Below are positions 17,044 to 39,223 of a stretch of 64,000 bases of DNA, one piece after another. The notes under the pieces are model-generated. The model ran no database searches. It was not told the origin of the DNA and worked only from the letters and a program-made list of their open reading frames with translations. The DNA is taken from the NCBI GenBank assembly GCA_964187785.1, contig OZ076409.1, forward strand, positions 27,654,001-27,718,000, read 5' to 3'. Numbering within the stretch: position 1 is the stretch's first letter; every line of letters begins with the position of its first letter. A program made the translations under genes and the position numbers. The DNA is from Amphiscolops sp. MND2022. Taxonomy: Eukaryota.

Positions 17044-19002
17044 CCCTGGTCGAAACTACAGGAACTTTTTACATGCAGCATTAATGCGCGCAGGCTAATT
17101 TTTTGAAAAACTTAGAAAATTCAGGGACCCTGCATGGAAAATTCTTGCAAAACTTCCCTGCAGCTTGGAAAATCCTGGCAGCATTTCCCTGTGCTTTGAA
17201 AAAATGCCCAAGCTGCTTAAAGCATTTTTGGAAAAAAATCCATGCAAGACTGTAAACATTTTCTTCGAAAACGACCGTTTTCTCAGCCCAAATCATATAT
17301 TCAAAAAAACATCGTGTCGATAACAGTATTGCTAATCCTGAACGTCCCTAATGGCTGAAAAAATAGGCGGAAGAAAACTTTCAATTGAAAAGATTTGAGA
17401 AAAAGAATCAATCCAATATAAAAAACATAAAAACCCGATATACGCATCTAGTTCCACAACTGTTGAGTTCATCGGTGAACTTTTTCCGTTAATTCAAGGG
17501 TTTCCCACATGACAACTAGCAACAAGACTTTGATACCATCATCGACTCCATGCATCAGCTTCAGACATTGATTCACAGCAGCGTCCAGGCAAAAGCCAGC
17601 ATTCTCCAATGAGGACCTGGAACAAAAAAGGAACGTTAAGCAACGATGCATGGAACGTTAAGCAAACATATGGCAACCCCAGACATTACAGAAAAGAAAT
17701 TACTCCTTATTCTACCGAAATCAAGTGTATTAGACGTTATTCCACAACTAATATGATTTTACAGGAATAAGGACTAAAATCGAGGAAAAAAGGTCCAAAC
17801 ACTGAAATAGCGACTAAAAATGCTGAAGAGACGTCTAAACACTGGAATTACGACCAAAAAAATTAATACAGTAAAATTTAGTCGTTATTTTACCAAAATG
17901 AAGGGTTTTAGACGTTATTCCACAACTAATACGATTTTACTGGAATAAGGACTAAAATCGAGGAAAAAAGGTCCAAACACTGGATTAGCTACGAAAAATG
18001 CTGAAGAGAGACGTCTAAACACTGGAATTACGACTAAAAAAGATGAATACAGTAAAATTTAAGCGTTATTTTACCGAAATAAAGTGTTTTAGGCGTTATT
18101 CCACAACTAATATGATTTTACCGGAATAAGGATTAAAATCGAGGAAAAAGGTCCAAACACTGGAATAGCGACTAAAAATGCTGACGAAACGTCTAAACAC
18201 TGGAATTACGACTAAAAAAGATGAATGCAGTAAAATTTAGGCGTTATTTGACGTTATTCGCGCCCCTATCAGAAATGAATTTAATTTTGCCGTAGTTTTG
18301 ACTAAAATTTACGAATTAGAACTTTTGTTTTCGAAAAATCTTTTGTGATTTTTTTCGAAAAACAGGCGATTTTTTTTCTTTTTCTCGCACAAAACTACGA
18401 AAGTACCGAGTTTTTGTACCGACCAAAATACCGAGAAAATACGAGAAAGTTTTGAGATTTTGTTTTTTTTTAGTTTCTCAGTTTTTTTCCGATTTACTGC
18501 GATGAAAAATTCCACCCAATCAAAACAGCTGATTCTAATATTCCGCTCTCAAAGTAGTTCCCCAAAAAACCTCGAAGAACTTCACAATTAACAAGTTTTC
18601 GCTTTGGCCAGATCAGAAAGATATAATAGTTACGGTTAGAAACAGTTTCCAAGCAGAAAAAAAATTTCCACCAAAAAAATTCCAGTAATACGAATTTGTA
18701 TACCACACTGGCACATGTAGACAATTTGTTTACATCATATTGTAGCGTCTGTGCTTACAAAATTTGAGGTTTTGCCCGCAAAAACATGGAAAAATTTTGC
18801 GGGGAATTTCTCTTGAACTTCCTTGATGTTGCTCTGAAAACCCGCCAAATTGTATAGAAATCCTAATAAATACTCGAAGAAATAGCATTGCATCAGGGAA
18901 ATATTTAGCATTAATGATTCTCCATGAAACTCTAAAAATCATGCTAAAAGTGCTAGGTAGCCTATAAAATCATGTAAAAGTTTCAAGCAGTTTCAACTAG
19001 GG
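17044..19002. mobile_element. Non-autonomous TIR element with CCC...GGG ends and 2-bp TSD (CMC/EnSpm-like)
   Basis: CCCTGGTCGAAACT / AGTTTCAACTAGGG (12 of 14 match), TG on both flanks; internal tandem array. Confidence 0.65.
17700..18258. repeat. ~180-bp tandem repeat, ~3 copies
   Basis: CGTTATTCCACAACTAATA recurs at ~17735, ~17913 and ~18094. Confidence 0.9.
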
Positions 19003-19400
19003 TGAACTTTGGAAGCGGATTTCCTCAACAGTGGCGAAACATACGATATAACCTGGCTGTCAAACGTATCACAGCTGCAAAATAGGTGCATTTTAATTTT
19101 TAAAAGCTTCAGCAGTTGCGTTTTGAACAAGTCAATGTTCATTCGAACCATCCAGTGCTGAACGTTTTGCTGTTGATGTTAATCCAAGCAACCAAGTATC
19201 TACTTAAAACCAAGCCCTATTAAATTTTTGCAAAACTTCTGTTGTTTTATAGAGTGTCAATGAGGAGATTCACCAGGGCACGAGAACGCTCAAGACACTC
19301 GATATCGCTGACGGAAAAATTCAAAGCGCGATAAGTTTTTGCATAATCACTTGACACAAAAGCCCTCGGGACAAAATTACAGACAAAATTTGTCTTTTAA

Positions 19401-20120
19401 TGTAACGTCCACCAGTCAACACCAAATTTTCGATGAAAAATTCGATCAAGAACCAGAAAATGTGCGAATCAAAATGGCCGACCTGGCAGGTCGTTGAAAC
19501 CCAAAAATGAAAAAAGTGAACACGCGAACAGGAAGAACAACAGGAGATGATAAAGAAAGGGAGCAAAACGACTATTGACATGAAGATTCACACGGTGCAG
19601 AATACGACGAACGCTACCCGGTGCTATGCCATCCCTCTGGGAGAGAAAGCAGAACTGTTCTAGAATGGCATGACTGGATCCCCGAAAATCTACAAACAGT
19701 AACTGTATTCTCACTTGGGGCTTATCCCCCTTTAATTTGTTAATTTATAATGCACTTTGTTATTTCCCCCATGCCTGACCTTCTAGGTCAGCATTTCATG
19801 TCCATAACTGTCGAAATGACATTTTTCGGATAAACATCTTTTTGGACCTCGGAAGTATGTGGGAGATGGCGGGAACGCGCTAAAAACCTTAGGATTTGTT
19901 TTTACAGGCTTGTGGGGCGTGTCCGGACTTTGAGAGTGCCGGCACGTCGCCTCGGAGCTCTAACTAGAGGAGCCTCCTTAGACGAAAGAAGAGTCTCCCT
20001 TGGAGACCATTTTGGGATCAAAAACTAGTGTTTAGGAGTGTAGTAAGACAACGGTCTCCTGTTTAAGCACCCTAGGCATTGTCCCTCTTCCTAGATGTGC
20101 GCCGCTAGCCGGACGTTACA
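19401..20120 (+). repeat. 5' LTR (720 bp)
   Basis: TGTAACGTCC...GGACGTTACA; only two substitutions seen versus 37989-38708. Confidence 0.97.
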
Positions 20121-20136
20121 TCTGGAATAGTTTTTA

Positions 20137-20153
20137 TGGCGACCACAGAGGGA
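20137..20153 (+). promoter_or_regulatory. Candidate primer-binding site (tRNA-Arg-like)
   Basis: TGGCGACCACAGAGGGA resembles the complement of the 3' end of eukaryotic tRNA-Arg(TCG/CCG), recalled from memory. It lies 16 nt from the LTR. Confidence 0.6.
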
Positions 20154-23100
20154 TATTTTTCAAGGATAATTTTCCTTACCGCGTCCTGCGAGGAGCAACT
20201 CCTGCTTTCCGGCCCTGAAAGGTCCGGATCTAGGAGAAGCTTTTGGGAGAGTCCTAGATTGTTTTTACTGCTTTATTCTAGCCCTTTGGGCCTTGTATTA
20301 GTGTTTTTCCTGCGTTTCCTGCATGTTTCCGAGGTCCCAAGCCTGAAAAAGACAGTTTGAAACGGTGTACCCCCTTGTACCTTATCTGTACTTGTTAAAA
20401 AAGCTATTCCGGCTTATCCGGAACGTGTTTTAACGGGTTTTCCAGCTTCTTTTCAGCTAATTGGCAATGTACAGGGACTGCGAGGACGGTTTGTGAAGAC
20501 CCGAGCTAGCTGAGTGCAGGACTGCAGGTGCTTCACCTCATAGCCTCTTCCTCCCCACCTGGTGCCGATTCACCGAAGACAGCTGGGTTATTTCGTTCCC
20601 TTTACGTTTTCTAGCCCAAAATTAGTATTCCCAGGCCTGTTTTTGCATAAATTAACTGTGAAAAATACCCACAGGGTATTTGCATCAGTTGTTTTAGGGA
20701 CTTGAGCTCGAAAACGCCAAAAATAACACTAATAACAGCTCAAATATCGAATTTTCCCGTTTTGAAAACCAGAATTTTATAGAACTGTGTACGGCCTGTG
20801 GGAATACCTGAAAAACGTTCTGTCGGACCTACCAGGTCGAGAACAAAAATTTTTGTTGGGCTGTTTTTCAAAAAAAACATGAAAATTTCAGCAATTTTTG
20901 TTCAAAAATCGGCAAAATTGGCCATTTTGACCAATTTTGGCAAGGGCGAAGCCTTGGGCGTTTGTTCCCAAGCCTCTTGAAAGGCCCAAAAATTTTGTAG
21001 TTGAGCTTGGTAGTATGCAACACTACTACCAAGACGGTTTTTGACTGCCCCCAATATAAATTGAAGTTTTAACATCACTTTTCTTCCATTAAAATAGACC
21101 TGAGTAAAGGACCCCATAGACCTGAGAGTTATTACATCAAAACCATCAAAACTAATTATTGAAACAACCCCATTCCCCTAAATAAAGTTGTTACACCTTC
21201 TAACACTACTGTTAGAACTATTCGGAACGTCTGAAAACAAAGAAATAAAAATTTCTTGGTGAAAATACGCATTTTCCGTACTGTTCCGAGAGTGTCAAAG
21301 GTGCAACTTAAAGTTTATTTTGAGAGACCTTATTTGGAACCTACCAGGTTTCGCTTGCCTATTTTCCGTTAGTATAGGGTACAACGTTGCAAACGCAGAA
21401 AACCGCAAGTGATTCCAACTAGTAGTTGCCGAGAAATAGCCAAAAACGTGTTATTTTTGTGACATTTTCGGAACACTGGAGTAGTGCTTCCAGTACAGGT
21501 CGAATTCTCTCCTAGTGGAAGCAGTCTCAAACGGATAGCACCATCGTGTAAACCGCAAAAAGTTACGTTAGTGGTGTAATTTTCGTAGCGCTACCACCAC
21601 TAGTGATCGAGAAATCTTAGCCGCAGTTTTGCTCAAAAATGATCCGAAAATGTCGAAAAAATTGAATTTTAGTTGAGCATAGTGCAATACCTCGCAGGTA
21701 CCCCAACACTAAAATTCTTGCATTTTCGTGCACACGGCACTGGATCACGACGATTTGTGCAATTTGAGCAGCCGGCTACTAGCCAAAGCTGAGAAATTGA
21801 CATTTTTGTGATTTTTGACCCGAAAAAGCGGTACCCCTGGTACATCAAGGTTTTGTCACTTCATATCGCCAGATATAGATCAAAGCACCTCGCCGCTAAA
21901 TTTTTCCGTCGTGTAGGCATAAAGTACGCTCGCATGCGAAATTTCAGGTAGCTAGGACGCCTAGAAGGCGAGTTTGACCACTTTTTGTGAATTTCGCGAC
22001 ATAGTCAATTTCTCAGTGAATATTGTTAAGTGGCCGTGACACCCACCGGATCAATTTTAGCGCAATCGGAGGCTTGTTCCCCACGATTCAGCCAGTGTAT
22101 TAGACGGTGTGAAATTTTCAGGTCGCTAGTACCACAAGAAGTGATTTTCACCTTCCCCGGAGGTGCTACTTGATGAGAAAAACAATATTTTGAGTGAATT
22201 TCAACTGAAAACCCATGCATTTCTAGTCCTGATGCACCTCATTCAGGGCTGAAACGACCTGTTTAGCGCATCGAGCAAATCCCACACGTCTTACTGAACT
22301 TATAAAATCCGTGTAGGGTTAGCCCCAAGATCAACGACCTTCCACTAAACACTCTACGAGACCAAGAGACGGTAACTCCAAAAACCGAAATTCGTTTCTT
22401 GCCCGCCACCAAAGTCGCCTAGGTGCAATTTGCTCGCCATAACCACCCATACTCTGCGCCTCGTATACCCTGAGGGTGCGAGAGTGTGCCCGGGAGCACC
22501 AAAACAGTCACAGACCAGGTTTGCGGAACGCGTAGAGAAACTAGAACAAGGACAGAGGAGATCATCCATATCGTTGTAACCTTTTTACCCACGAGCCATG
22601 AAGCCATAGACCAGGTCACCACTTGATACTCAACCCACGCGTTCCCAATCAAACCCCATATCATTCCCAATCCATTGCCCACCCATTGTTCCCGAACCAA
22701 CCTCCTCGCACAAGCAAAAAAAAACTTAAAGTGACCCCCACTGCGCTCCGCGCAAGGGATACAGCAGATACCCAGATACCCTCGCTGACGAGTTTGAAGC
22801 TAACCCAACAACTTTCAGTTCACGGCAGCAGCAAGGCCTGCGGTCACCTAAAAGTAGAAGCCAATCTAGCGTATAGTAATCCGTAGTAGTGATCAAAAAA
22901 AAAACTAAAAAATTTTTGTTAAGAAAGTCAAACCTTCTAAGTGAGGAAAAAGCAGACGAAATTTTAGTTAACCAAACCAGCGATAGTGTGCCTAGTGCAC
23001 TCCAAAAGTGTAGGAAGCAATTCAAGCCCATTTAGCAAGTCTCTACCCCAATACACAAAAGACCGGTAACGCCGAGTGGCAAAGCGCGCCAAATAGCTTA

Positions 23101-23317
23101 GTTAGTTAGTTAGTCAGTGCAGTTTAGATAGTAGCTTTTTGAGTTATTTAGCCAAAGCAAACCCTCCCCATTCCATCATTTACCACTTGTTTTGTGGGGG
23201 GAAGTGAGTAGAGAAAAGCCAAAAATCAAAAAAAAAATTATTTTTTTTGTTGTTGTTGTCGGCCACATCGTGGAAGCTTCGCACGCAGTGGAAGCTAAAA
23301 TATTACATTCCGTAGCC

Positions 23318-26011
23318 ATGGAACGACGTGAGACTAACGCCACCATAAGCGACTTCCATGCCACCAACCCTTTCAGAAGAAGAACGGAAGCCACAGCCGA
23401 ACAAAACGAATGTAGATTAGATTCCGCCATAGCAGCCGTGTTTTCAGAAGTTATGTCTGACTTCGTACCGAGCCAGGAGCAAAACGCGGAGATAGCCGTT
23501 GCCACCAGCCAGCCTAACTCCTCGCGAGCCTCCCCCGACAGCACCAATCCACCGGATGATGCTGAAACCACCACGCAAAGAAAAACATGGCCTCCGCTGG
23601 AAGTCACCGACTACAGTTTGGAAAATTGGCCAAACTCCAACCAAGGGCCCACAGGTGAGCCCAGCATTGCTGATACCCCCAACGAACAAAATGACACTCC
23701 AGTGACTCCACGGGCGGACCCACGGACGGCGGTTGTCGAAAGGAACCCCCGGGTTCCCAGGAGATGACCAATAGCATAGGCGGGAATCCCTTTCGAAGCG
23801 GATATGCGCTACCGGAAGCACCGGCGAAGATGTCGAACAGGCCAGCGGAGAACTCGAAGACAAACATAACAGAGAATCCGTTAAGATACGTTTTTCGAAC
23901 GCCACCCTCGGTGAGACCAAAGATTAATTATGCGAATGCGAGCCGAACATCCCACACGCCAGACTCTCAAGCTAGCGCCGACACCAATCTTGACTCAACA
24001 ATAACCAAAGCAAGAAAGGAAACGCAAACGGTTCGAGAAGACTTTCAAAGTAGCCTAGCTCAGCTAGCTCAAGTCCAGACAAGGCTAGCGCGGGAAAACA
24101 ACGAACATGAGATGCGCGCCGACATGATAATGAGAGACATGGACGAGCTGTGAAAAGGTCTTCTGGAAATGCAAGCGGAAGGGCGACAGAATCAGGGCCG
24201 ACTGGAGGCGTCCATGGCATCTCTCAATGATCTGATTAAACAGAGAGAAACTACAGCGGACGCCCGCATGGCCGAGATGTCCGCAATAATGAGAGAAAGA
24301 GACCGCCAGGCCGACGAACGCATGAAAGCAATGACAAACACAATGCAGCGCCGCGACATGGACTCCAATGTCCGCATGGCGGACTTGATGATGGCAATGC
24401 AAGATTTAACACTGGGCGTGAAAGCAATTGTGTCGCAGACCCCCGCACAGCAAACACAAACGGCGTCACGGGTGCCCCAAAAATACCAGCAGGCCGAGAT
24501 GCCATCTACAAGTGAAGCTCCCCAACCTCACTATAGGACGGTGGCACAGCACACAGTGGAGCCTCCTAGGCCCCCAAAACTAGTGCCACCCGCGACGTAC
24601 AGGCGTGACCTGTCGAAAGCTAGTAAGATGGCTAAGGTAACCCACACGGAGTCACGAGACGCCGGCACAGACCCCATGACTGACCCGCCGTCGTTTGACC
24701 AGTACACTCGCGGGGCATCGACCTCGGGCGACTTTCATTCCGCTGCCGACGAAACGAACACCCGCAGGACCAGCTACTATACGGCCGATTCCAGCGCGGC
24801 ATTCCGCCCACCTGCGCGAACGCAGACGTTCAGAGACTTCGTTCCGCGGCCAGTGGCCACCAGTACGCAGCGCAAGGTGACGACCAAGCGGAACCTAGAA
24901 CAAGGCAAAGGCGAACATAGTGACATTGAAGAGATGCCCTCGGTGGCAGAAGAGGCCCCGGACACACCGAGAACTACCCAACGACAAGCACTAGCAGAAG
25001 CAATATCCACAGCCTTGTCTAAAGGCTTGGAGCCGTTGCTCGCCGTCAAGGAGTCTAAAAACAAGCCCACGAAATACAGAGGAACCCGAGACGGAAATGC
25101 AGATGGGTGGATGATGTTGATGAAACGCCACTTGGAAAAAGCACACCCGAAGGCGACCCCCCTCGATAAAGCATGGACGATAATTGAGTATCTAGAGCAT
25201 GAAGCCAGAGACTACATCACGAATAAGTCCGAAGCCGAGAGGGACACGGATGAGAAAGTATTCGCATTGCTGGCGCGTCGCTTTGGGACAGGCTCCAGCA
25301 AAATCCACATCCAGCAGCAATTTAGAACCCGCAACCAGAATAGCGAAGAGGACTACATGCAATACCTTGATGCCCTCGAGGGCTTGCGTAGTCAGGGTTA
25401 CCCCAATGAAGAGGTAACAGTTCGTCGATACGAAATTATGCAAAGATTCATTGAGGGAGTACGCAACTTTGAACTAAAAAGAAACCTCGCGCTAATGTAT
25501 GCACCGGAACAATACGTGGAGACCCCGCCAACAGTGGAAGCCCTCCGCTTCACGGTACAACAATACTTACGCACGCATGCGTGGCTCCACTCGCTCGGAC
25601 AACTACCCGATGATACCCCCTCCACAACAACAAGCCAACATCCCACAACCTAATCAGTCTCCGGTAGCACCCACGCCTGCCCAAAAAATGCAACAACAAC
25701 AGCCTCCCCAACCAGCAGCATACCAACAACAACCCATGCCACCGGCAGCCTATCGACAACAACCCCAAAGGGCGTGCTTCAACTGCGGAGACCCATCGCA
25801 CTTCGTGGTGGACTGGCCCCTGAAGGACCGTGCACGGAAGCCGGTGCAACAGCAAGTAAACTCCTGTCACACGAACCCGACCGGCAGTTGGGTGTGCCCC
25901 TCTCAGCCACATGGCTTGAACTATGATGTTTTCCCAGCATCTCTGCCAACCCAAGGCACAGTTGCATTCTGCATTAATTGCGGCCGTACTGAGCACTCGG
26001 CGTCGGAATGC
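23318..26011 (+). pseudogene. gag: Gag region (disordered N-terminus, coiled coil, capsid-like domain, two CCHC knuckles), disrupted
   Basis: ATG in GCCATGG at 23318. Frame change near 23760, in-frame TGA at 24151, ACGC duplication at ~25570. Knuckles CFNCGDPSHFVVD(W) and CINCGRTEHSASEC. Confidence 0.8.
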
Positions 26012-29000
26012 ATGGCCTCGGAACAAATGAGTCACGAAGAACAAATCCGTGCAGCGTGGTATGCTCCTTCACCAAGTCAATTCGACGGCCTGAGCCAAGA
26101 CGACCAGGTCCGGGTAATATCGATAGCAGAAGATGGAGGCCCCTCCCGACCTGTAGTAGTCACCTGTGGCGAGAAGCAAGTACTCACCACGCTGGAGGCA
26201 CCCGCCCCAGATTGCACAGAAACACTTATCTCGATACACTTACTTCTCTCGGCCGAGCAAAAATCGCGACCCACGCTGACGCTATCGCAACTAAAGGAGG
26301 AGTTATGCAGAAACGTGAAATATACAATCGCAGCGCGACCGCTCCCGCATTTCGCAAGAGAAGACGAAACGAAACTGGCCCCAATACAGAAAGTCAAAAC
26401 CGTTTCTCCGGTGCCGGTAGCCATCAACGTAGACGGTGTAGACATGAAGTTTGACGCTATCGTAGTCTTAGAAGGTCACTTCCCTCAGGGATTGTACTTG
26501 GGCCGCCAGGAGTTGCGATGTTATAACATCGGAGTGCAAGATGCCCATGGGGAGGCTCGCATTGATGAACGGGCATCCCTGGTAGTTGCCTTTGGCAACA
26601 CAATCCAGGAACCAATACCCTTGTACGGGATGATTGACACCGGCTCGGGTGTCTCCATTCTCTCCCTAAAGGCCTATCAAAAGATTGCATCAGCCCACGC
26701 CTTGAGCCTCCTGCCTTATGACATCCAACTGTATGCCGCCAATGGCAAAACCATCAACACCATCGGCATTGCCGAAAATGTTAGCTTCCAGTTGGGCGGA
26801 CATACCCTTCGAACCAATTTTATAGTCATCGCCGATCACCTAGGTGCGGAGGACTTTTTGCTTGGCAGAAACTTCTTGCGCACTTACAACGTTCTCGTGG
26901 ACCTGACGGCCATGAGGGTCACCATACGAGACCCCAAAGCGCCACGCTACTTCAAACCCGTCCATGAGGTAAGTGACCACGAGCCATCCTTAGTGATATC
27001 CACCGAAAAAGTAGTCCTAGGCCCTTATGAGCGTAAACTGGTGCGAGCCCAAGTTTTTTCTCAAAAGCACAATGAGTACCTTTTCCGAAACGTAATGATT
27101 CGCCCCCTGGGGGTACATAAACGATGCCCCTTTGTTTCAGAAGATACATTGACGTCTGTTGGAGACGAGGGCATTGTTTTCATAGCCGTACGAAACACTG
27201 CCACCTTTGAAAACGTAACCATTCCAACCAAAACTGTCCTCGGTAAGGCAGAACCTACAAACTTTGTGTTGCAACCTGTGGCTGCCGACACGGCAACCGA
27301 AATTGATAAACCTTTGTTTGAACAAGTTAATAGAGTTTATACCGATGAGTGGTTGAACGAAACGAGTTCGGAATATAGTTCTTTTGCTCAAAACTTTTTG
27401 TCCTCTACTGAGATGTCTGAAGAAGGGTTGTCGGAAAGTGAGAAGCGTGCTCGGACTGACCCACAGTTACTAAGACCTATACCAGGTCCAGACCTCTCTT
27501 CTGTCCTTTCTTCATGGGGGGAGGGAGCGAGAGATCAACTAGCAAGCGTCCTGAGCGAGTACGATGATCTTTTTATGAAGCATAAAGCTGACATAGGGAG
27601 GTGCAAAATAGCGAAACATCGTATAGAACTAGAGCCGGAAGCTATCCCGCATAGAGAAGGCGCTCGGCGCATGTCCCCGGATAAGGCGGCGAAGGCTAAT
27701 CAAGAGGTGCGGAATGTGTTGGCCCTTGGCCTAATTCAACCCTCCTATTCACCGTGGGCAAGCGGAATAGTCATGGTCAAAAAGAAAACAGGCGAACTTC
27801 GCTTCTGCTGCGACTTCCGACCGCTCAACGACGTAACGGTCAAGGACGCGTTCCCATTGCCCAGGATTGATGAAAGTCTATCCCGGATAGGCAATGCGAA
27901 AATTTTCACAAGTATTGACCTAGCGTGGGCCTTCTGGCAGATACCGCTAAAGAAGCGCGATAGGAGGAAAACGGCGTTTGCCTGCGAACTGGGCTTGTTC
28001 GAATGGCGACGCATGCCCTTTGGGCTGTGCAATGCCTCAGCCACATTTCAGCGTTCCATTACACGAGCCCTGCAACGGATCCAACAGCGACACGGGAGTG
28101 TCGTCATGGCTTACATTGACGACATCGTTATCGCCACGGAAACCATAGAAGACCACATCGCACGAATCAAGGAAGTATTCGAGTGTCTCCGAGAGGCTGG
28201 ATTCAAGATGCGTGCCGAGAAATGTGACTTCATGCGCACGGAGACAAAGTACCTGGGGCGAGTGGTGTCCTCAGAAGGCATCGAGCCAGACCCCGAAGCA
28301 GTAATCAAAATCCAAGAATGGATGCCCCCAAGAAGCAAAGAGGAGCTTCAGAGCTTCCTAGGGTTCGCGAACTATTACCGAGACTTTGTGCCGTTTCATG
28401 CAGCCAAGGTGCAACCCCTGCAGGAGTTGCTCAAGAAGAGTCAGCATTTCCACTGGGAAGTGAAACACCAAGAGGCCTTCGATGCCGTAAAAGAGGCACT
28501 AGCAAATGCGACCGCCTTGGCAGCCCCAAATGAAGACGGACGGTTCGTGCTCGATACCGATGCTAGTGCGGTAGCAATAGCTGGAATCCTGCACCAGGAA
28601 CAAGAACACAACGGGAAAACTATCTTACGGCCAATAGTCTTCGGGAGCAAGTCCCTAACGAAGACGCAACTGAACTATGGAGCACCCAAGTTGGAAATGT
28701 ACGCAGTATTTAACTTCATAGAGAAATTCCACTCGTATCTCGCAGGCCGAGAGTTCACGCCCCGCGTGGACAACCAGGCCCTATCGTGGCTTAAAACGTA
28801 CTCCATGGACCAAGCCATGATAGGTCGCTGGATAGCCCGTCTGGATCAATATAACTTCAAGACGATCCACCGACCTCGCACACAGCATCGAAACGTGGAC
28901 GGCCTCAGCAAACGGACTAACGACTATGTGCACCGAGAGAAAATCCTTGAGAAGTTACCGGAAGTGAGTGAAGGATTCAACTTCATGACCCAGGAAGACT

Positions 29001-31243
29001 ATGAAGCACTCCCCACCGTGCCATACTTTGATAAACACGGACGCCTAATACCAAACCATCCAGAGCTTCCACCGGAAGCTCGAGCCCAACTCCCACTGCT
29101 GTATATCTTGGGAAAAAGGCCCAAAATGAGCTTGCAAGAACCCCCGGTGAGTGATGCCCCGTGGTACCCCCAAATACAGTGGGAAGCGACACCCACCATC
29201 GATGAGGATCACCGACCGAGTCACATCCTCAGCATCACAACCGGAAGGCCACCGGCACGCCTAGACACTGGAGATCCTGATCCTGTGCTTGAAGGGATGC
29301 CACCCGAATGCCAAAGACAAGCCCACGCCCTCAGAACAGTCGGGACAGAGCTGCACGAACACTTTCTAACTAGACGTGGTCTCAAAGACCTGCACCTAGC
29401 GCAAAATAGGGACGTGCACCTCCTGGCGCTGAGGAAACTCATGAAAGGCGAACCACTGGAAGACACAATATTCCCCGAAGACGTGCAGGACTTCGCGCGA
29501 CGCTACTTCCATCAAAAGAAAGACCTGCTCTTCCTGAACCCAGACGACATCCTCTGCGTCAACTACGTTCCGCAACAACGTGCGCTGCACGTGCGACCGT
29601 GCATGATAGTCATGCCCCAACTATACCAACACGAGATTTTGTATAGGGCGCACGACGAATCGGGACATCAGGGCGTAGGGAAGGTGCTAGCAAGAGTACA
29701 AGAGCGGCACACCTGGCCGGGCATCAAGCGTGACATAGTCAATCATATTAAGCACTGCTTAACCTGCCAGCAAACAAAACACCCTGCCGGGAACCCCTGC
29801 TACCCCTTGCAGAACATTAACAGCAGCAATTTCAACGACTTGGTGCAATTCGACCACCTCAAACTATGCAAAACTGAGTCGGGGAACACCGGTCTCTTGG
29901 TCATGATAGACCACTTCACGAAATTCGCCGAGGCTATCCCGTGTGCCCACGACGAATATGATGCCCAAACCACAGCTAAGATCATCCTTAATAAATGGTT
30001 TGCCAGGCACGGCACTCCAGCACGCATGCAGTCGGACAATGCCACGAATTTCACAGCTGAAATCGCGCAGGAGTTAATGAAGGCATCGCAGGTAACAAAG
30101 GTGACATCCACAGCAGCGCATCCCCGAGGAAATGGACTCGTGGAGAGACAGAACCGAACGTTACTCACACTGCTCAGAGTCTACACATCGCGGCGAATGC
30201 AGGATTGGGATGAGCACATCGATGGAATCCTCGGTGCTTACAATTCAACTAGACACGCAACCACGGGATTCTCTCCCTACATGCTCCAACATGGAGCCGA
30301 AAAATCCATTCCCTTGTCGTTCATCTACCCAGAGTTTGCTGCGCGAGGATTCGATTCCAAAGAAGAATTCGTAGAACACCTTCTAGCCAGGCAACAAGAA
30401 ATCCATGAACTCGTCAGAAGAAATACGCACCAAGCACAGCTAAGGCAAAAGCTAAAGTTTGAACGCCACCGGAAGGCCAAAGCGCACGCCGTAGGCGATG
30501 CGGTGTGGGTATTCTGCCATATCATACCCAAGGGTGGCACCCGCAAGCTGATTCGCGCATGGCGTGGACCGCACAAGGTGACTGACGTGTTGCAGGACGG
30601 ACGATTATATGTGCTAGACACTGGTCAAAAGGTCCATTACGAAAGATTAAAAAAACACGTGCCCGCCCCTTGGGACTGGGCTGCACACCAGCCCTTTGGG
30701 CCGGATCAAAACGTAGCCATCATTGCTGATCCGTATGTAGAAGAAAGCAATGAAGAGATAGCGTCCGACATCTCTCGAGAATCTTTTCTACCAGAACAAC
30801 TTCCGGAAGCGTCGTTCGAAATGGAGCCAACAGGATCGGTTCCACCTCGTACCATTCAGACTCGTACCCAAACGGCCCTCGAGCAAGGAATACCCCGAAG
30901 AAGATTCAGCCACTTCGGATACCCCTCTGACTCAGACTCCGAAAGAGAAGAAAATGAACCGCCGATCCAGAGCCCAGCACCGCCAGTAGTGTTCCCCGAC
31001 TTGGACGACCTAGAACCACTGTACTCCGACCAGGAGGAAATTCAGCCAGCCGCACCTACAAATCTGATACCATCACCCTCAGGGACCTCGGCCCCACTAC
31101 TATCCAATCCGTCCCTGACGGATACCCTGAGTAACTTTCCCTTGTTTGGCCCCCTATTGGAGGACCCAATCGGTCCGATGGAAATTAAACCAAAGTCAGG
31201 AACTGAAGACGAAGAAGAGATAGTCCATCGCAGTCCAAACTAA
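25499..31243 (+). CDS. pol: Pol polyprotein: aspartic protease, RT, RNase H, integrase
   Basis: DTGSG (~26636), MPFGL/YIDD (~28112), DTDAS...E...D RNase H, HDESGH...CLTC zinc domain, FDH/SDN/VER DDE core, WRGPHKV GPY/F motif. Confidence 0.97.
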   Translation: MHRNNTWRPRQQWKPSASRYNNTYARMRGSTRSDNYPMIPPPQQQANIPQPNQSPVAPTPAQKMQQQQPPQPAAYQQQPMPPAAYRQQPQRACFNCGDPSHFVVDWPLKDRARKPVQQQVNSCHTNPTGSWVCPSQPHGLNYDVFPASLPTQGTVAFCINCGRTEHSASECMASEQMSHEEQIRAAWYAPSPSQFDGLSQDDQVRVISIAEDGGPSRPVVVTCGEKQVLTTLEAPAPDCTETLISIHLLLSAEQKSRPTLTLSQLKEELCRNVKYTIAARPLPHFAREDETKLAPIQKVKTVSPVPVAINVDGVDMKFDAIVVLEGHFPQGLYLGRQELRCYNIGVQDAHGEARIDERASLVVAFGNTIQEPIPLYGMIDTGSGVSILSLKAYQKIASAHALSLLPYDIQLYAANGKTINTIGIAENVSFQLGGHTLRTNFIVIADHLGAEDFLLGRNFLRTYNVLVDLTAMRVTIRDPKAPRYFKPVHEVSDHEPSLVISTEKVVLGPYERKLVRAQVFSQKHNEYLFRNVMIRPLGVHKRCPFVSEDTLTSVGDEGIVFIAVRNTATFENVTIPTKTVLGKAEPTNFVLQPVAADTATEIDKPLFEQVNRVYTDEWLNETSSEYSSFAQNFLSSTEMSEEGLSESEKRARTDPQLLRPIPGPDLSSVLSSWGEGARDQLASVLSEYDDLFMKHKADIGRCKIAKHRIELEPEAIPHREGARRMSPDKAAKANQEVRNVLALGLIQPSYSPWASGIVMVKKKTGELRFCCDFRPLNDVTVKDAFPLPRIDESLSRIGNAKIFTSIDLAWAFWQIPLKKRDRRKTAFACELGLFEWRRMPFGLCNASATFQRSITRALQRIQQRHGSVVMAYIDDIVIATETIEDHIARIKEVFECLREAGFKMRAEKCDFMRTETKYLGRVVSSEGIEPDPEAVIKIQEWMPPRSKEELQSFLGFANYYRDFVPFHAAKVQPLQELLKKSQHFHWEVKHQEAFDAVKEALANATALAAPNEDGRFVLDTDASAVAIAGILHQEQEHNGKTILRPIVFGSKSLTKTQLNYGAPKLEMYAVFNFIEKFHSYLAGREFTPRVDNQALSWLKTYSMDQAMIGRWIARLDQYNFKTIHRPRTQHRNVDGLSKRTNDYVHREKILEKLPEVSEGFNFMTQEDYEALPTVPYFDKHGRLIPNHPELPPEARAQLPLLYILGKRPKMSLQEPPVSDAPWYPQIQWEATPTIDEDHRPSHILSITTGRPPARLDTGDPDPVLEGMPPECQRQAHALRTVGTELHEHFLTRRGLKDLHLAQNRDVHLLALRKLMKGEPLEDTIFPEDVQDFARRYFHQKKDLLFLNPDDILCVNYVPQQRALHVRPCMIVMPQLYQHEILYRAHDESGHQGVGKVLARVQERHTWPGIKRDIVNHIKHCLTCQQTKHPAGNPCYPLQNINSSNFNDLVQFDHLKLCKTESGNTGLLVMIDHFTKFAEAIPCAHDEYDAQTTAKIILNKWFARHGTPARMQSDNATNFTAEIAQELMKASQVTKVTSTAAHPRGNGLVERQNRTLLTLLRVYTSRRMQDWDEHIDGILGAYNSTRHATTGFSPYMLQHGAEKSIPLSFIYPEFAARGFDSKEEFVEHLLARQQEIHELVRRNTHQAQLRQKLKFERHRKAKAHAVGDAVWVFCHIIPKGGTRKLIRAWRGPHKVTDVLQDGRLYVLDTGQKVHYERLKKHVPAPWDWAAHQPFGPDQNVAIIADPYVEESNEEIASDISRESFLPEQLPEASFEMEPTGSVPPRTIQTRTQTALEQGIPRRRFSHFGYPSDSDSEREENEPPIQSPAPPVVFPDLDDLEPLYSDQEEIQPAAPTNLIPSPSGTSAPLLSNPSLTDTLSNFPLFGPLLEDPIGPMEIKPKSGTEDEEEIVHRSPN

Positions 31244-32989
31244 TGCTCAACACAACCCGATACCACGAACCGCAGAGGACGGCCTCGAGGCCGACCACCA
31301 GGTCGAGGACGACCCCGCGCCATACCATCCAGTAGAACCACGACATCGTCGCGAACCCAAACCACACGATCCAGAAGAGGCCCTAGGACAAGAGTGAGCA
31401 CTCGTGCACCCCCTCGAAAGCTAGACCGAGCAATGACTCTACCAGAGATACCCGAAAGCCAACAACCACCGGAGAACCAGAATTCTGAACCGAGACCGTC
31501 ATCGCAAACATCACGATATCAACTGCGAGCTAATAGAGCACCACGATACAAGTGTGGAACCTGTGGTTCCCGCAACTGTAGTTGCGTCAAGCAACTGACT
31601 CGCGATTCACCGGACAACCGATTGGCCCGGGGAGCGGTAGTCCCTGCCAGGGACCTCCTAATGGCCAGGGCACATTATCATCCACAACATGAGATCCTGA
31701 CTGTACAAGCCCAGCGAGAAAAAGTTGAGGCCCCTCCGCTAGTACACCATCTAATCATCACGGTAGAGAAAACATTCACTAGTGTGGAGCGAGAAGTGAT
31801 ACCACCGCTGGAAGAAACACTCAGAGCAATGCACGCGACATCTCCCTCCGACTGCCCCACTTACCGATTCAAGGAATGGACACCACCTCACCGAGGCGGT
31901 TTAGAGTTCACCCTACATGCCATCATACCGCCCTTGCCACCCTCAATGACGTTCGGCGAGCTAGCGGAAGAGGATAGCAGCCCGGAGATGGTTCGCTGTA
32001 CCACTGCACACCAACTGTGGGAGAAATATCGCATTGCCTCCCCGCCGGGAGACATATACCAGCCCACCAATGGATGGTGGCTACTCGTCACTTCTCTCGA
32101 CGCAACGACATTGGTGTCTCCCACAACTCTATTAATGTGCTTAGAGAGCTTGCGCACTGTAACAGAACCTGAGAATACGCTCTGTTTCCACATGGCCGAC
32201 ATTCATCGCGGCAAGTTCCTAAGCCAACATTGGCTACAATTAATAGCGGTCATCTTCTGCCGACAGGCGAAGATACACTTCTTGGATCGGCAATCTTATA
32301 CGCCGGAAAAACCCGTCACGGTCAACGAAGCACTCTCGATAGCACACGATTGGTCATCTACCAACATGGGAGATAGACCGCTACGCCGCACCGTCTGGGA
32401 GGACCGCAAAGCGATCTTACGGCATTTAGCACCCCAACCTAATGATGACCAGAGCAATACCACCGGCAAATGGCTCATAACCCAGCCCAAGACCAGACCG
32501 AACAACCTGCCTTGGATAACTTATGCCAATACAGATATCCTGCAGGCCCCTGGCACTGTGATACTGTGCTGCCCTGCAGATTTGCTCTCTTACTCTTCCA
32601 CCACCCGTTATGTTATTCGCGAGTACGGTCAGGAAAACATATTTCGCCTAAGGCCGGCAGTTGGCACCGCAATTCGCTTAGTCCGCTCGCCAACTGCACC
32701 CTGGAATAACGAAATTTTCCTTCTATGTACAAGAGCATCGAATAAATACCCACTCTTACATGAAGTACTCCATGCGTGTTTGACAAATTTGATAACCCAG
32801 CTCCATCGAAACCACATTACCAGAATCCACTTGCCCATATATGATCCCGAGCGATCAATGAACCTCCTACCAGCCTGGTACGCCACGCTACGCGACCACT
32901 TTGCAGACCATAGTATTGCAATAATCTTGCACGATCGCGTCTATGTCTCGATAGCATCGGTGACCTCAGTCGATTTTGGCGGTAGTTAA
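31244..32989 (+). CDS. In-frame extension after integrase: AT-hook cluster, CxxC-CxC motif, two degenerate macrodomain-like repeats
   Basis: Same frame as pol, separated only by TAA at 31241-31243. RRGRPRGRPPGRGRPR at ~31271-31318. WITYANTDILQAP...IFLLCTR...ITRIHLP resembles TARG1/OARD1. Confidence 0.72.
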   Translation, partial: CSTQPDTTNRRGRPRGRPPGRGRPRAIPSSRTTTSSRTQTTRSRRGPRTRVSTRAPPRKLDRAMTLPEIPESQQPPENQNSEPRPSSQTSRYQLRANRAPRYKCGTCGSRNCSCVKQLTRDSPDNRLARGAVVPARDLLMARAHYHPQHEILTVQAQREKVEAPPLVHHLIITVEKTFTSVEREVIPPLEETLRAMHATSPSDCPTYRFKEWTPPHRGGLEFTLHAIIPPLPPSMTFGELAEEDSSPEMVRCTTAHQLWEKYRIASPPGDIYQPTNGWWLLVTSLDATTLVSPTTLLMCLESLRTVTEPENTLCFHMADIHRGKFLSQHWLQLIAVIFCRQAKIHFLDRQSYTPEKPVTVNEALSIAHDWSSTNMGDRPLRRTVWEDRKAILRHLAPQPNDDQSNTTGKWLITQPKTRPNNLPWITYANTDILQAPGTVILCCPADLLSYSSTTRYVIREYGQENIFRLRPAVGTAIRLVRSPTAPWNNEIFLLCTRASNKYPLLHEVLHACLTNLITQLHRNHITRIHLPIYDPERSMNLLPAWYATLRDHFADHSIAIILHDRVYVSIASVTSVDFGGS

Positions 32990-33320
32990 GAACACGTCTC
33001 GCTCTCTCCTTGGCAAATCAGGCCACTGGCCTTTTGCATTGCCTTTCGTAATTTCGAAGCACCTTAAATTTTAACAACGATGCACCGATAAGCGCAAGTT
33101 TTAGTAGCAACCACATAAAATTTTTTTAACCTTGTGTTTGTGTGTTCGTCCTAAAAAGTTTGACTGACCACCCATTTATGTAACGTTTTATCCCCAACTG
33201 TGACCTGTTTTTCAGTTTTGTCTTGTTGCCTCGCCTCTGCGCGGCTCCCCCACTTATCACGCCAAATCAGTCTTGCCATCACAATCTTCGGTGCTAAACA
33301 TTCCTTTATCATTGTTTCCA

Positions 33321-36300
33321 ATGGACCCATCTGCGCGACACCGCCTGCCTGCACCCCAGAACGCTGCGCGTGCCCAACCATCCACAAGGAGCGATCCACC
33401 TCCAATGATGAGTGAAATAGATGGTCGAGTCGACCAACTAGCTCTTGTCCAAGACACTCTACTAAACGGAGCGACACCCACAATGATCGCTGGCTTTGCC
33501 ATGATCATCGCCCAAATCCAAGCTCAGGCAGAGTACCCTGATGTTAGCCTCACCATCACCAGCCGGGTCGGCCCGATAGAACGCTCTGCCACCTTTCGCG
33601 ACGGTACCTGGCAAGGGTATGACTTGACCCACAGCCTCATAGATCCTCGCTCCCACTTAGTCTATGGAGAGCCTACTAGGCCTCCCATGGACCAAGAGCG
33701 ATCACTGCGCATTTCGCAATCGGCATTGCAGACACAAACTACGACCCCGTTGCCCTCACCACACCCTGTGCAATTCAGCTGCACACTGCCAATCATGCCA
33801 CCCCCAGTGCTAACACCGCCCATGCCTCTGGCATCGGAAGGCATCCGACTACTCACAACCCCATCTTCTAACTTCATGCTTCCATCTACCTTTCAGGGGG
33901 GAGGGGTGCAAGTAGACAATACAACAAGCGCTACCCTGAGCGAAGAACAGCCCAGGAGAACGGTGACGTTCAAGGACTCATATGAAGAATTGACTCAAAC
34001 GTCCTCCAGAACCGAATCACAAGTCTCGGAACCTCCACAAGTCTCAGAACCAGCCAGCCTAGTAGGCTTCCAGATGGACCCACAATTCCGAGAACGTCAG
34101 CGAGAACAACAGAAAGCTGAAAGTAAGGCGGCCAACACCGTGGTAGACCTCCGGGAGGAGATTAAAGCTGGAAAGCGAGCTAGAGAGGCGGCCGGGCAAG
34201 GTAGGCAATCGAGCTCGACCAGTATCCCGCAACCCCCGTCTACCTCGCCCACACAACCAGAAATCAGGAGACCTAGAATAACGCACGAATTCCTCACAAA
34301 TGCAGAAAAACGACAGCTAGACATCACTGCACGCGACGCACTGCGTCTCAAGCGGGAAATACCAACCACGACGTCACCAGAAGACCCATTACAACAGAAG
34401 TTCGAGGTCGCTACAGGAACAGGGGACCTTGCCAGTAGACAGAAAATAGAAAAAGCCACGGTAGGGGTACTCTACAATCGCCCCGTCAAGAAACCCGTGT
34501 TCACTCGGGATGGATGCCCCCCCTGGTTCAACCGCATGCGGGCAGAACTGGAGAGAGTGGATTCAACATACATGCGTGTTCCCGACGGCTTCCTCCGACA
34601 GCGCCCAGGCCGCTTTGACGAAGACCGCTTGCGAACCAAGAACTATGCGAGGGACCCCATTACAATCCTGCCCATGGGAAAGGACCTCCTACAGAAAACC
34701 AGAATAGCCTTCTTCGTCGACTCGACGATAAAGTCTTCTTTCAATTCCCACAATACCCTCATGGACGTCAGAATACTGAACATGCCCTGTACTACACTGA
34801 ATGAAATGGCAGAGGTGACTGATAAAATGTTCACCCAAGCGGGAACAGAGACTATCCCACTACCTCCGTTGTTGGTATATTCGAATGTGATAGACCACCT
34901 CGCTCTGCGAGGGACCCTGGAATTCTTCCGGCCAGACCATGAAAGGTTTACCGAGGGGTTCGTCACTGACGAGGTAACTAACTACGTGGAGACGATGGCC
35001 AATATTGCCCAAGCTATGCGCAGAAAGAAAGCCACCACTGGGACGGTGTTTATGTCACCTCCAGGCTACGTGTACCTTCCTCGGACCCTTCAGCAATTCT
35101 TGTACCTAATAATGGAGGCCGCGTACGCGAGAGATCTGGCTTTCTACATTGTGGCCCCTAATTTACGCATCAGTAACAATAGCTGGCGCCCCTGTGAAGC
35201 CTCATACCCAGCCTTCATTGCCGAAGTCTCCAAGGCCCTCCAATCATACGTCGGTTACCGCGGCAATTCCCAAATGATAGTAGATGAAGCAACAGCGTTC
35301 GATTATGGGATGGAAATGGCTCGTCGATCAATGAACGAGCGTGGAGACCGAATAGTGAATAATCCAAATGAAAATGAGCGCAATAACCTGGTGGATAACC
35401 TCTGGTTTGAACGCCGGGACGAATCGACCATAGACGAGAAAACGCATGAGCCCAAGTTCCACAAAGAACTCACGAGTCTGATGAAGGAAACCGAAACGAT
35501 TCAAAGTGATAGGAAGAATTCCTCTATCTTCCCTATAACACAAATATCGTTGGACGCTGAACCTGGGCAAAGATCACCCACATTAGCCATGCTGTTGATA
35601 CAGGCTCAAGATATTGTACGAAGGAATGCTCAAGAGCCAACACACACATACCAAACATGGCACGACCAACTGCGAGAACCTCTGGGCCAAGTCGCGGACC
35701 AGCTAGGCATATCATTTCCCGTATTCCTCCATAACATCTCTCCCTTCTGGCTTCCTTCCCTAGTACAGGCCGAGTACGGCCTGGATGAGCAGCGAATGCG
35801 ACTATACATGGAGTCCATGGAAAGAGCCACCATTAGTGAAATACTAGCGTATTTGATGGCCGTGGGGTTGACCATGATGTACCGAGGACCGTCAGCCCTC
35901 ATACAAAAGTTCGTGCTCAACAAGGGAGGCTCAGCCCTGTTCAGCTTCCTGGTCTTTTCGCAGAATCAAAGGAGTTGGATATCTGCGCTCATTAAAACTC
36001 TGGACCCAGCGGGTTCCTTGAAGTTAAAAGCGCAACTAGATTTGAACATTCAAGCACTTCTAGTGTGGATTTATTCCACTTGGGTCAATGTTTCTGGCGT
36101 TATGCATCCTCTGGATGAGTGCCCAGCTATTAACCGAGATCCCAGTCAGCTTCCAGGGTTCCTGTTCCCTACACAAATAGCAACGTTGATGCTCGTGGAA
36201 ACAGAGGACCTGATCCCACTCATTGCTCCTGTAATCTGGCCTATCTTCGGCGCAGTTATGGCCTTGCGCTATCCAACGCAGGCCTTGCGAGTGGCAGCAG

Positions 36301-37405
36301 TAGCCCCATCCCTCTCGATTCTACACTTCGTGACCTCTAATGGGCCCCTTCAGGGTCCCACCTATCAATCAGTGATACACAGCTTTGCCAACTTTCGACC
36401 TCCCATGGCATACACCATAATCAAAGACCGCCAACAAGTGGAGCACAACTATCTTACGTTGATCAAAGCGCGAGCACGCAGCTCGCTCCCATTGCCAATG
36501 GAAATCCACCCGGTCGTTTGGCTACATACCCCCTCAATCCAAACAATGGAGCAGTGGCAACGTTTGATGGGTGGGACGTGCCAGTTGTCCTGCGTATCTT
36601 GAGAGCGATTATCCAAAGATTGGGTGGTCGCCGAAAAGGAGAAGAACCTACTAGGTTATTATATCCCTATGCGTGTGACACTTCCAGAGCATACTGTGCA
36701 AGAGCGGATCCCCGTGAGCATACCGCCAGAATTTTAAATACCATTACGTGTTGGGCCCAGCCGGAACTCGTAGACCTCGCTATCCACCAGACCTTTCAAC
36801 AGCTGCCAACGACTATTCCAACAGTAGCAAGAGAACCAAGCAGGAAAGATCTGCCCGTGAGCACTGACGTTCCCAGCAACCCGCGCATTGCGCTAGAGAT
36901 ATTCGTGCGCCTGCATGGTCTCCAGCGAGAACATACTCGAGCTGTAGGCGAAGAATACGTTAGGGGAATACAAACATTCAAGCAGCTATTCACCCAGCAT
37001 GGTCATCAAGAATTGGCGGACGGACTGCCGAACTTAGAGCCAACCGAAGCTATCCCAGGGATCAGCGACTTGAGCGAAGCTGCCTCTGGCAGCTCTCGCA
37101 CCGTCCTTCCCACACCCCACCTCACTCAAGACACCGATGAATTATTGGTATAAGGGGTACAAGACGATGTCCCAAACGTCATGCCACCATCAGAGGAGCC
37201 TATGACCGACAACAACTTCACGCTCTCTGATGCCACTACTCCTGTAAGAGACGAAGCGGAGACTAAGATCTCAAACATGGAGGCAACGGACATAGAGTCA
37301 GAGCTTAACAACTTACTGACCATAGATGAAGAATACCAAAATACAGTGGACACCATGGGCAGCACTTCCATGCAAGAAGCCCCACAGAACCAGCTGTTGG
37401 AGTAA
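33321..37405 (+). CDS. Large extra ORF3 (~1350 codons if one frameshift near 36520-36600 and TAA 37151 are repaired), with an SGNH-like domain
   Basis: 1109-aa ORF, an overlapping 211-aa ORF and an in-frame 74-aa tail. Motifs IAFFVDS, ILNMPCTTL, LLVYSNVIDHL, VFMSPPG. Confidence 0.75.
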
Positions 37406-37951
37406 AGGAGTCCTCTGGACCCTCCAAGACCGTTGGAATACAATTAAGCACAAAAGACCTTATCATCAAAGCATTGATGCCAACTCTTGATTTTAGTTGT
37501 GCTACACCATCTTACTGGTGCTGAAAACATTCGGTGCAATAAAGCTTGATTTCAAAATTTTGTTTGATATATATTTTACTATGCTACCAATGCAACAATG
37601 CAATATAGCTACATCCTCTGGGCGGGTCCCGGTTCGGTGCCCTCCCCTTTTGATTTGAATTTAAAACTTCTACTAAGCCCAAAAGTTGTTGTTACTCACT
37701 TGGCCGCGCAGGGGTCCAATTTTAGAAAAAGAAATTTTACCTTGAACTGAGTGATTAGTGAAAAAACTTTTTTTAAAAGATCCGACTGTAGAGTTTTTAA
37801 CCTAGAAACCCGTGCTTTTTGAATTTGATGGCTTTAGAGTGCTAAACATGCAGTAACGAAACGAAAAGAATAGTAATGTGAAATCAACATAGTCTTGATG
37901 TAAGACCTTTTCTGTAAATCTCAGAGTACCCTTTGGGTGCGAGCATCCTCT

Positions 37952-37988
37952 CGTTTGCCGAGGACGACAAACTACGGCCCGGGGAGGA
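37952..37988 (+). promoter_or_regulatory. Pre-LTR hairpin and polypurine tract
   Basis: GTTTGCCG-AGGA-CGACAAAC stem (perfect in the 6575-6593 copy), then GGCCCGGGGAGGA abutting the LTR. Confidence 0.85.
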
Positions 37989-38708
37989 TGTAACGTCCAC
38001 CAGTCAACACCAAATTTTCGATGAAAAATTCGATCAAGAACCAGAAAATGTGCGAATCAAAATGGCCGACCTGGCAGGTCGTTGAAACCCAGAAATGAAA
38101 AAAGAGAACACGCGAACAGGAAGAACAACAGGAGATGATAAAGAAAGGGAGCAAAACGACTATTGACATGAAGATTCACACGGTGCAGAATACGACGAAC
38201 GCTACCCGGTGCTATGCCATCCCTCTGGGAGAGAAAGCAGAACTGTTCTAGAATGGCATGACTGGATCCCCGAAAATCTACAAACAGTAACTGTATTCTC
38301 ACTTGGGGCTTATCCCCCTTTAATTTGTTAATTTATAATGCACTTTGTTATTTCCCCCATGCCTGACCTTCTAGGTCAGCATTTCATGTCCATAACTGTC
38401 GAAATGACATTTTTCGGATAAACATCTTTTTGGACCTCGGAAGTATGTGGGAGATGGCGGGAACGCGCTAAAAACCTTAGGATTTGTTTTTACAGGCTTG
38501 TGGGGCGTGTCCGGACTTTGAGAGTGCCGGCACGTCGCCTCGGAGCTCTAACTAGAGGAGCCTCCTTAGACGAAAGAAGAGTCTCCCTTGGAGACCATTT
38601 TGGGATCAAAAACTAGTGTTTAGGAGTGTAGTAAGACAACGGTCTCCTGTTTAAGCACCCTAGGCATTGTCCCTCTTCCTAGATGTGCGCCGCTAGCCGG
38701 ACGTTACA
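37989..38708 (+). repeat. 3' LTR (720 bp)
   Basis: Direct repeat of 19401-20120. Confidence 0.97.
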
Positions 38709-39223
38709 TAAAGTCAAACAAAAAATACGAAAGTTGCCATACTTTTGGCAATTTTAGAAATCTATCATGCAATATCTTGAAAATCGCTGGTCGCAGCGAA
38801 AACTGTCTCATACAGAAATTAAACCTTTGACTCAGATCTCTAGCTTTTAGGTTTAACATTTTTTTGAAACGTTCATCTTTAGAATTTATACCTTGAAACG
38901 ATCGGAAAATACGAATTCTTCAATTTTTCCTGCAAAAAAGCTGCAAAATTGATTGTAGATTGAATAAGATTTAACTACCGGCTAAGAGTTTTGGGTTCCC
39001 TGGTTGGAACTGGTTTAACTTTTTACATGTTTTTGTAGGTTACCACGATGTTATTAAAATCTCAAATGAGAGTCCATACATCAAAACTTCACTGATTTGA
39101 TTTAATTTTATCAAGCTGCCTGTAAGATGCATCCTAAATTTAACGGCAATTCTGCGCCGCAAGGTATTGCAGGTTTCAATAAGATGCCGTTCTAATTTTG
39201 AAAGCAGCTGAGACCTTCATAAA

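Follow-up and report, generated by a model that had tools for sequence, protein, structure and literature searches.

The window, by which we mean the whole 64,000-nucleotide stretch of DNA that was analysed, contains a recently active Ty3/gypsy LTR element of 19.3 kb (19401-38708), and the module described here lies inside this element. Its LTRs of 720 bp each are 99.7% identical, and its Ty3/gypsy membership is evident from an LTR pair with TG...CA ends and from the Pol order protease-RT-RNase H-integrase, as identified with Pfam. In the host assembly (1.07 Gb, 1929 contigs, probably of an animal), copies of the window family occur on all 13 large contigs. The element is organised as follows:

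19398-19400: target duplication of 3 bp, directly 5' of the 5' LTR
19401..20120, + strand: 5' LTR, 720 bp, TGT...ACA
23135..31243, + strand: gag-pol, interrupted in the window copy by stops and frame changes (ORFs, Pfam); pieces 23135-23767, 23695-24153, 24154-25653 and 25496-31243, + strand
within gag-pol 23135..31243, + strand: protease (Pfam)
about 27776-28258, + strand: RT (Pfam)
about 28454-28852, + strand: RNase H (Pfam)
about 29615-29782, + strand: integrase zinc domain (Pfam)
about 29834-30124, + strand: integrase core (Pfam)
31241..31243, + strand: nonsense codon, private to the window copy
31271..31318, + strand: three AT-hook-like RGRP cores in the sequence, basic stretch, RRGRPRGRPPGRGRPR
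31517..31585, + strand: Cys motif Y-x-LR-x2-R-x-PRY-K/R-C-x2-C-x4-C-x-C, kept in families
31742..31927, + strand: conserved segment of ~60 aa ahead of repeat 1 (dN/dS 0.09; 41-67% identity across families)
31934..32290, + strand: pseudo-macrodomain 1 (repeat 1), shortened predicted TARG1 fold (pLDDT 73, Z 11.7; dN/dS 0.11)
32501..32941, + strand: pseudo-macrodomain 2 (repeat 2), predicted TARG1 fold (Z 17.4; dN/dS 0.11)
33204..37153, + strand: second ORF (33204-36602 plus a piece in another frame, 36341-37153), without Pfam match
37989..38708, + strand: 3' LTR, with a polypurine tract directly 5' of it
38709-38711: target duplication of 3 bp, directly 3' of the 3' LTR

The second ORF has homologues in families F52 and F62 (31-32% identity; lengths 1488 and 1430 aa), and no counterpart was found in the F16 copy examined; some of its motifs may point to an SGNH-type fold. 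The region from the 5' LTR to gag (20121-23134, ~3 kb) holds no long ORF, and positions 20765-22182 are similar to window positions 200-902 and 4342-5041. A primer-binding-like sequence that starts with TGG (20136-20152) lies ~15 bases inside from the 5' LTR instead of adjoining it, and the same offset was seen in families F16, F52 and F62. Directly upstream of the element, a unit of about 180 bp is present in three tandem copies (17697-18252). At another locus, L082, an LTR has element-internal sequence on both sides, which indicates a tandem or internally rearranged copy.

The initial annotation had noted that the pol frame stays open past one stop. We confirmed this, locating the stop at 31241-31243, and all motifs quoted there lie in frame within 31244-32989. 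It had also asked whether this TAA is a sense codon in sister copies, which is the case in 29 of 29 sisters (from the best 30 of the 40 DNA matches listed, the thirtieth being the window copy). In a second set of copies, used for the selection test below and sharing three copies with the former, the stop was absent in 18 of 18. Single frames of ~3250-3300 aa with the tail at their end occur in many of the sisters, and in three further families the tail ends single frames of ~3100-3300 aa. Because the stop is private to the window copy and the codon is sense in its sisters, the 581-aa tail is part of Gag-Pol and forms its C-terminus. The sense codons in the sisters also rule out programmed read-through of this stop. 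The position assigned earlier to the module, namely the integrase C-terminus, where chromoviruses hold a chromodomain, is supported.

Of 2399 candidates from a database search, 89 were homologues, 36-95% identical. An AlphaFold2 model of the tail, built from 31 of these (mean pLDDT 67), contained one strand/helix order that is present twice. For repeat 2, the best structural match of this model was human TARG1 (Foldseek E 6.5e-9, target TM ~0.8; VIA Z 17.4 with an rmsd of 2.6 across 140 residues), with DarG ranking after it. When repeat 1 was modelled alone (41 sequences, pLDDT 73), human TARG1 was again the best match (Z 11.7, rmsd 3.3 over 118 residues; Foldseek E 8.8e-5), its lead over the Bt_1257-like 2afc and DarG being just ~1 Z unit. 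TARG1 thus held rank 1 for each repeat in both structure-comparison programs, and the top rows for both models were nearly all macro-fold proteins. A structure prediction devoid of a macro fold had been named in advance as evidence against the macrodomain reading; what we obtained was a predicted macro fold for both repeats, with TARG1 as the closest known structure.

No significant Pfam match was returned for the window sequence, the tail, the single repeats or the 31 homologues, and PDB searches with single sequences or with a two-domain profile gave nothing relevant. With a repeat-2 profile of 35 sequences, the five top-ranking PDB matches were TARG1 chains, at weak E-values of 0.02-0.03, and the 33-residue spacing from the Lys84 position to the phosphate loop fits the TARG1 family pattern. 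The two repeats matched each other by profile with a probability of 85 (E 6e-6), against at most 11 for 20 reversed or shuffled controls, whereas the match of repeat 1 to catalytic-pattern TARG1 reached a probability of 6, level with the best control at 5.4. In the ESM Atlas, unnamed clusters scored 0.90-0.91 and a Macro cluster 0.89, which is a lead only.

Selection on the tail was assessed in 19 window-family copies that are 92-99% identical to the window, 18 of which were picked for long open frames, a choice that biases against stops. Each repeat gave a dN/dS of 0.11 (p about 1e-11 in a shared-variant test). The enzyme domains were lower, at 0.03-0.07, and the linker (0.30) and the AT-hook stretch (0.37) higher. 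Purifying selection, whose absence was the other refuting observation named at the outset, is therefore detected on both repeats. The tail is common to three further young, high-copy families (83, 96 and 98 scored matches); between these and the window family, the repeats are 43-74% identical in amino acids at saturated synonymous sites. All four families retain both repeats, the RGRP cores and the four-cysteine motif. Between families, the repeats change ~5-10x faster than RT and the integrase core (pN 0.17-0.19 vs 0.01-0.04).

The smaller motifs of the tail differ in how strictly they are kept. AT-hook R-G-R-P cores with basic flanks number three in the window and 1-3 per family, varying in number and place between families. 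They are present (1-3 cores) in 7 of 7 tandem-clade sister frames that reach the region, versus 0 of 13 RT-bearing Pol frames with a single TARG1 domain. The AT_hook model of Pfam matches 4 of 31 homologues weakly, below significance, with a best E of 0.2. The Cys motif, a possible zinc site, showed zero amino-acid changes among the 19 copies and was retained in 5 of 5 representatives of the 4 families. Its silent sites (31517-31590) were identical to F16 at 15 of 15 positions versus 41% overall (p 0.0005; a second F16-type copy gave p 0.30), possibly reflecting an overlapping DNA or RNA signal. A search for an RNA hairpin at this motif was negative, as 20 of 200 shuffles folded equally well (z -1.4).

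The TARG1 pattern TKx(30,35)Px[IL]GxGxD contains Lys84 and Asp125 (available text of PMC6397177). It was found in 0 of 83 repeat-2 segments and 0 of 98 repeat-1 segments. Individual residues were mapped by ungapped profile alignments and not by model coordinates, a mapping that is weak for repeat 1. Among 45 non-redundant representatives of repeat 2, the Lys84 position is occupied by Arg in 44, the Gly121 position by Asp in 44, the Gly123 position by Glu in 39 and the Asp125 position by Pro or Ser in 38; the Gly43 position holds Ala in 42 and Gly in none. The adenine-binding Asp is retained in 39 of the 45, and each of four arginines around the mapped pocket is found in nearly all of them (41, 45, 44 and 41). 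In the window copy of repeat 2, the adenine Asp lies at 32534, the Arg at the Lys84 position at 32732, and D-P-E-R-S replaces G-C-G-L-D at 32843-32857. Repeat 1 has no equivalent of Lys84 or Asp125, its adenine Asp is missing from most copies and its loop-1 region is shortened, while its Gly123-equivalent is retained in 34 of 35 representatives. The glycine loops, described initially as missing, are thus gone from repeat 2, but in repeat 1 the Gly123-equivalent persists.

These substitutions bear on function. The proposal that the macrodomains are catalytically dead agrees with the loss of catalytic residues in both repeats, so that both are probably inactive as judged from their sequences. 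In human TARG1, the G123E substitution abolishes ADP-ribose binding and activity, while RNA binding via surface charge and nucleolar entry are retained (PMC5928194, in the portion available). Since repeat 2 carries precisely this TARG1-blinding Glu, together with Asp at Gly121, the data argue against the earlier suggestion of an ADP-ribose reader, and we infer that ADP-ribose binding and hydrolysis have been lost.

Macrodomains with the catalytic pattern are present in other gypsy lineages of the same genome. A Pfam Macro search of the host genome matched 6 of the 150 candidates that were scored; three of these resemble host macrodomain exons, and the other three are integrase tails with a canonical TARG1 domain. 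With that canonical domain as the query, 150 of 150 scored candidates matched, out of 1448 candidates. The catalytic pattern was present in 17 of 21 sampled domains (L035 and 20 others); one misses it by one hydrophobic residue and three are without Lys84 and Asp125. It was also present in 7 of 7 database Pol proteins. Separate loss of the TARG1 catalytic residues was seen at loci L087, L088 and L102. Single TARG1 domains occupy three sites in Pol, namely the integrase C-terminus, the RNase H-integrase interval (seen in an element that also has an env-like ORF) and the interval between protease and RT, and one is also found 3' of the protease in an RT-less ORF of 834 aa. The latter belongs to a many-copy element of ~8.7 kb (L099:2993-5494, with L115 and L116) that has LTRs of ~1.95 kb and a 5-bp duplication; its one protease-plus-TARG1 ORF retains the catalytic pattern, and without RT the element looks non-autonomous.

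From protease to RNase H, the window clade shares 21% identity with the lineage that carries a single C-terminal TARG1 domain, and in an RT tree it forms its own supported group (98/97). This tree comprises only host-genome elements and unnamed database relatives, with long branches and no macro-free outgroup, and does not distinguish a single from a repeated capture of TARG1. Outside the host genome, an L035-type domain was found in 0 of 95 candidates among long database proteins, which is weak evidence, and an L097-type search matched 7 of 31 candidates, all of them unnamed ENA records. The RNase H-macro-integrase stretch gave no usable match in the ESM Atlas.

The insertion sites of the tandem clade revealed a further peculiarity. 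In the window family, 14 of 15 paired copies have a target duplication of exactly 3 bp, and none matches at 4-7 bp. Of the 8 copies that could be tested in sister families, 6 have 3 bp, one has a mismatch and one no match (a ninth had no LTR pair). For other gypsy lineages, where duplications were read by eye from the flanks, six elements showed 5 bp, a seventh probably so, and one showed 4 bp, two being unreadable. Ty3/gypsy elements usually duplicate 4-6 bp, a range outside which the tandem clade falls, and this is an odd trait of the clade, not a ground for excluding it from Ty3/gypsy. As LTR finders generally ask for duplications of 4-6 bp, the 3-bp duplication is relevant to annotation. 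Our literature search found no paper on a 3-bp target duplication in gypsy elements.

The composition of insertion sites was compared for 49 insertions, 48 of them with full flanks (of 40 extra stretches, 5 did not include the LTR end). GC content beside the insertions was 0.356-0.365 versus 0.376 at greater distance (n=48; p 0.04-0.24 across four windows), AT-run cover was equal (0.163 vs 0.164), and no common flank sequence was found among the 49 insertions. These data give no sign of strong AT or repeat targeting. The AT-rich targeting put forward in the initial annotation finds at most slight support, in a GC content lower by 1-2 points at the flanks.

What might the tail do? We tentatively favour, without considering it probable as yet, that it would serve as a non-catalytic, ADP-ribose-blind tether of the integrase to nucleic acid or chromatin, a reading that leans on predicted models. 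We commit to it because of the C-terminal position, the AT-hook cores, the near-invariant arginines at the closed pocket and the pocket-independent RNA binding of TARG1. An ancestor of the element would have captured a TARG1 gene, whose ligand pocket was closed before the domain was duplicated; that duplication came after the onset of decay is suggested by repeat 1 being far closer to repeat 2 than to catalytic-pattern TARG1. In the present-day tail, the AT-hooks would engage the minor groove, and the arginines around the former pocket would contact the nucleic-acid backbone, so that the integration complex could be held on chromatin with little sequence preference. The flank data imply that any tether is not strongly sequence-selective. 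At the matching position, chromodomains steer gypsy integration (10.1101/2021.11.30.470311, part of the text). Several observations run against a tether: the pI of repeat 2 ranges from 5.3 to 9.0 between families, so that it is not always basic, and that of repeat 1 is 5.65, the viral protease may cut the tail from integrase, the GC dip at the flanks is just 1-2 points, and the RGRP cores lie in the stretch with a dN/dS of 0.37.

Two other readings, each of which we regard as unlikely, also assume a blind pocket. One is counter-defence mimicry, in which the dead domains would divert a host ADP-ribosylation factor or TARG1 partner, or shield integrase, without binding ADP-ribose. The catalytic pattern in most sampled TARG1 domains of other gypsy lineages suggests a pressure from ADP-ribosylation, TARG1 strips ADP-ribose from DNA as well as proteins (PMC8501950, available text), and the repeats evolve faster than RT and the integrase core. 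However, the whole-domain dN/dS carries no arms-race signal at that level, and a closed pocket could not absorb ADP-ribose. The other, of similar standing, is that the tail is cut off and binds the element's own long RNA (element length 15-19 kb) in packaging or reverse transcription. This would suit the RNA binding retained by ADP-ribose-blind TARG1 (PMC5928194, portion available), the basic stretch and Cys motif in the tail, and the oddly conserved Cys-motif codons between two families, which may mark an RNA signal. The codon conservation, though, was seen against one F16-type copy and not the other, and the predicted RNA fold at the motif is ordinary. AT-hooks, moreover, bind double-stranded DNA.

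We consider it improbable that the tail is a structural part of the integration complex that shapes target bending and cutting and thereby produces the 3-bp stagger. The duplications of 3 bp in the window and sister families, against 4-5 bp elsewhere, fit such a role, but the link is one clade-level correlation, and the integrase core, which normally determines the stagger, is likewise clade-specific here. Very improbable, in our judgement, is that the repeats still read or hydrolyse ADP-ribose via other residues. The adenine-binding Asp kept in most repeat-2 representatives and the Gly123-equivalent retained in repeat 1 would allow it, and SCO6735 is active without the Lys/Asp pair; yet a G128E substitution in the phosphate-binding loop of SCO6735 strongly lowers its activity (both PMC9411070, in the text available). 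Repeat 2 has acidic residues at both phosphate-loop glycines, in TARG1 one of these substitutions suffices to abolish binding (PMC5928194, portion available), Gly is never found at the Gly43 position, and repeat 1 mostly lacks the adenine Asp and has a shortened loop-1 region. Lastly, that the tail is neutral baggage or a chance open frame, as the lack of significant Pfam and PDB sequence matches for the window sequence might suggest, has next to no chance of being right: the selection test refutes it, and both the conservation at saturated synonymous divergence and the confident predicted folds speak against it.

The insertion sites of LTR retrotransposons are determined by integrase tails, among whose known modules the chromodomain is foremost. 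If the tether reading is true, the selected dead TARG1 pair would be a new integrase module that is invisible to Pfam. A broader conjecture, possible in our view but rather doubtful, is that ADP-ribosylation is an unrecognised host defence against LTR retrotransposons. Gypsy elements would have repeatedly captured TARG1 and kept it active at three Pol positions to strip ADP-ribose from their own DNA or proteins, as a eukaryotic parallel of DarG versus DarT; one giant clade would then have reshaped it into a tandem module blind to ADP-ribose, which would represent a novel type of domain for integrase targeting or for decoy and would be carried by an integrase whose 3-bp stagger escapes standard LTR finders. 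The occurrence of catalytic-pattern and degenerate TARG1 in one genome makes host ADP-ribosylation of retrotransposon DNA or proteins, and element-borne erasers, testable with small purified domains. In addition, a natural Gly123-to-Glu domain under selection offers a probe of TARG1 function without the pocket.

Poa1p/OARD1-like macro domains appear to be annotated automatically in Pol proteins of animal retrotransposons, so that single-TARG1 fusions may already be known in annotation, though undiscussed. Our search, which left subscription journals mostly outside, found no description of a tandem dead TARG1 tail; the supplementary tables of 10.1101/2021.11.30.470311 may list fusions. The only direct precedent that we found in the literature is the macro-domain ORFs of fish endogenous retroviruses (cited in PMC4977317, available part). 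These fish elements resemble ours in being reverse-transcribing elements with a captured macro domain. They were reportedly described by Basta et al. in 2009. Whereas the fish domains are described as encoded by additional ORFs of epsilon-like retroviruses (PMC4977317, available part), those found here are in frame with gypsy Pol, duplicated and without catalytic residues.

Among cellular proteins, TARG1/OARD1/C6orf130 (ALC1-type, with DarG, Poa1p and SCO6735) is the best structural match for both repeats, which differ from it in lacking Lys84, Asp125 and the GxGxD motif, in being arranged in tandem and fused to a retrotransposon Pol, and in sharing only 12-18% identity with TARG1-type proteins. 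The coronavirus SUD/Mac3 domains are likewise tandem macro folds for binding nucleic acid or protein instead of ADP-ribose, and bind G-quadruplexes (PMC6397177, available text). They stem from an RNA virus and match the repeats less well (Z 7-8 vs 11.7-17.4 for TARG1), and we take the likeness for analogy rather than kinship. Giant gypsy elements with captured domains, such as Burro and Ogre, are similarly large, with long polyproteins and extra ORFs; the terms 'macro', 'AT hook' and 'ADP' do not occur in the available text of the review that covers them (PMC6431247). Chromoviruses such as MAGGY also carry an additional host-derived, selected domain at the integrase end. Here, by contrast, the tail consists of a predicted macro pair with AT-hooks and a Cys motif; Pfam found no Chromo match in the element, and the modelled parts of the tail, all after residue 215, are predicted macro folds. 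Host-domain capture on a gypsy integrase tail is known; unusual here are the selection on a tandem pseudo-enzyme, its catalytic-pattern counterparts elsewhere in one genome and the stagger of 3 bp.
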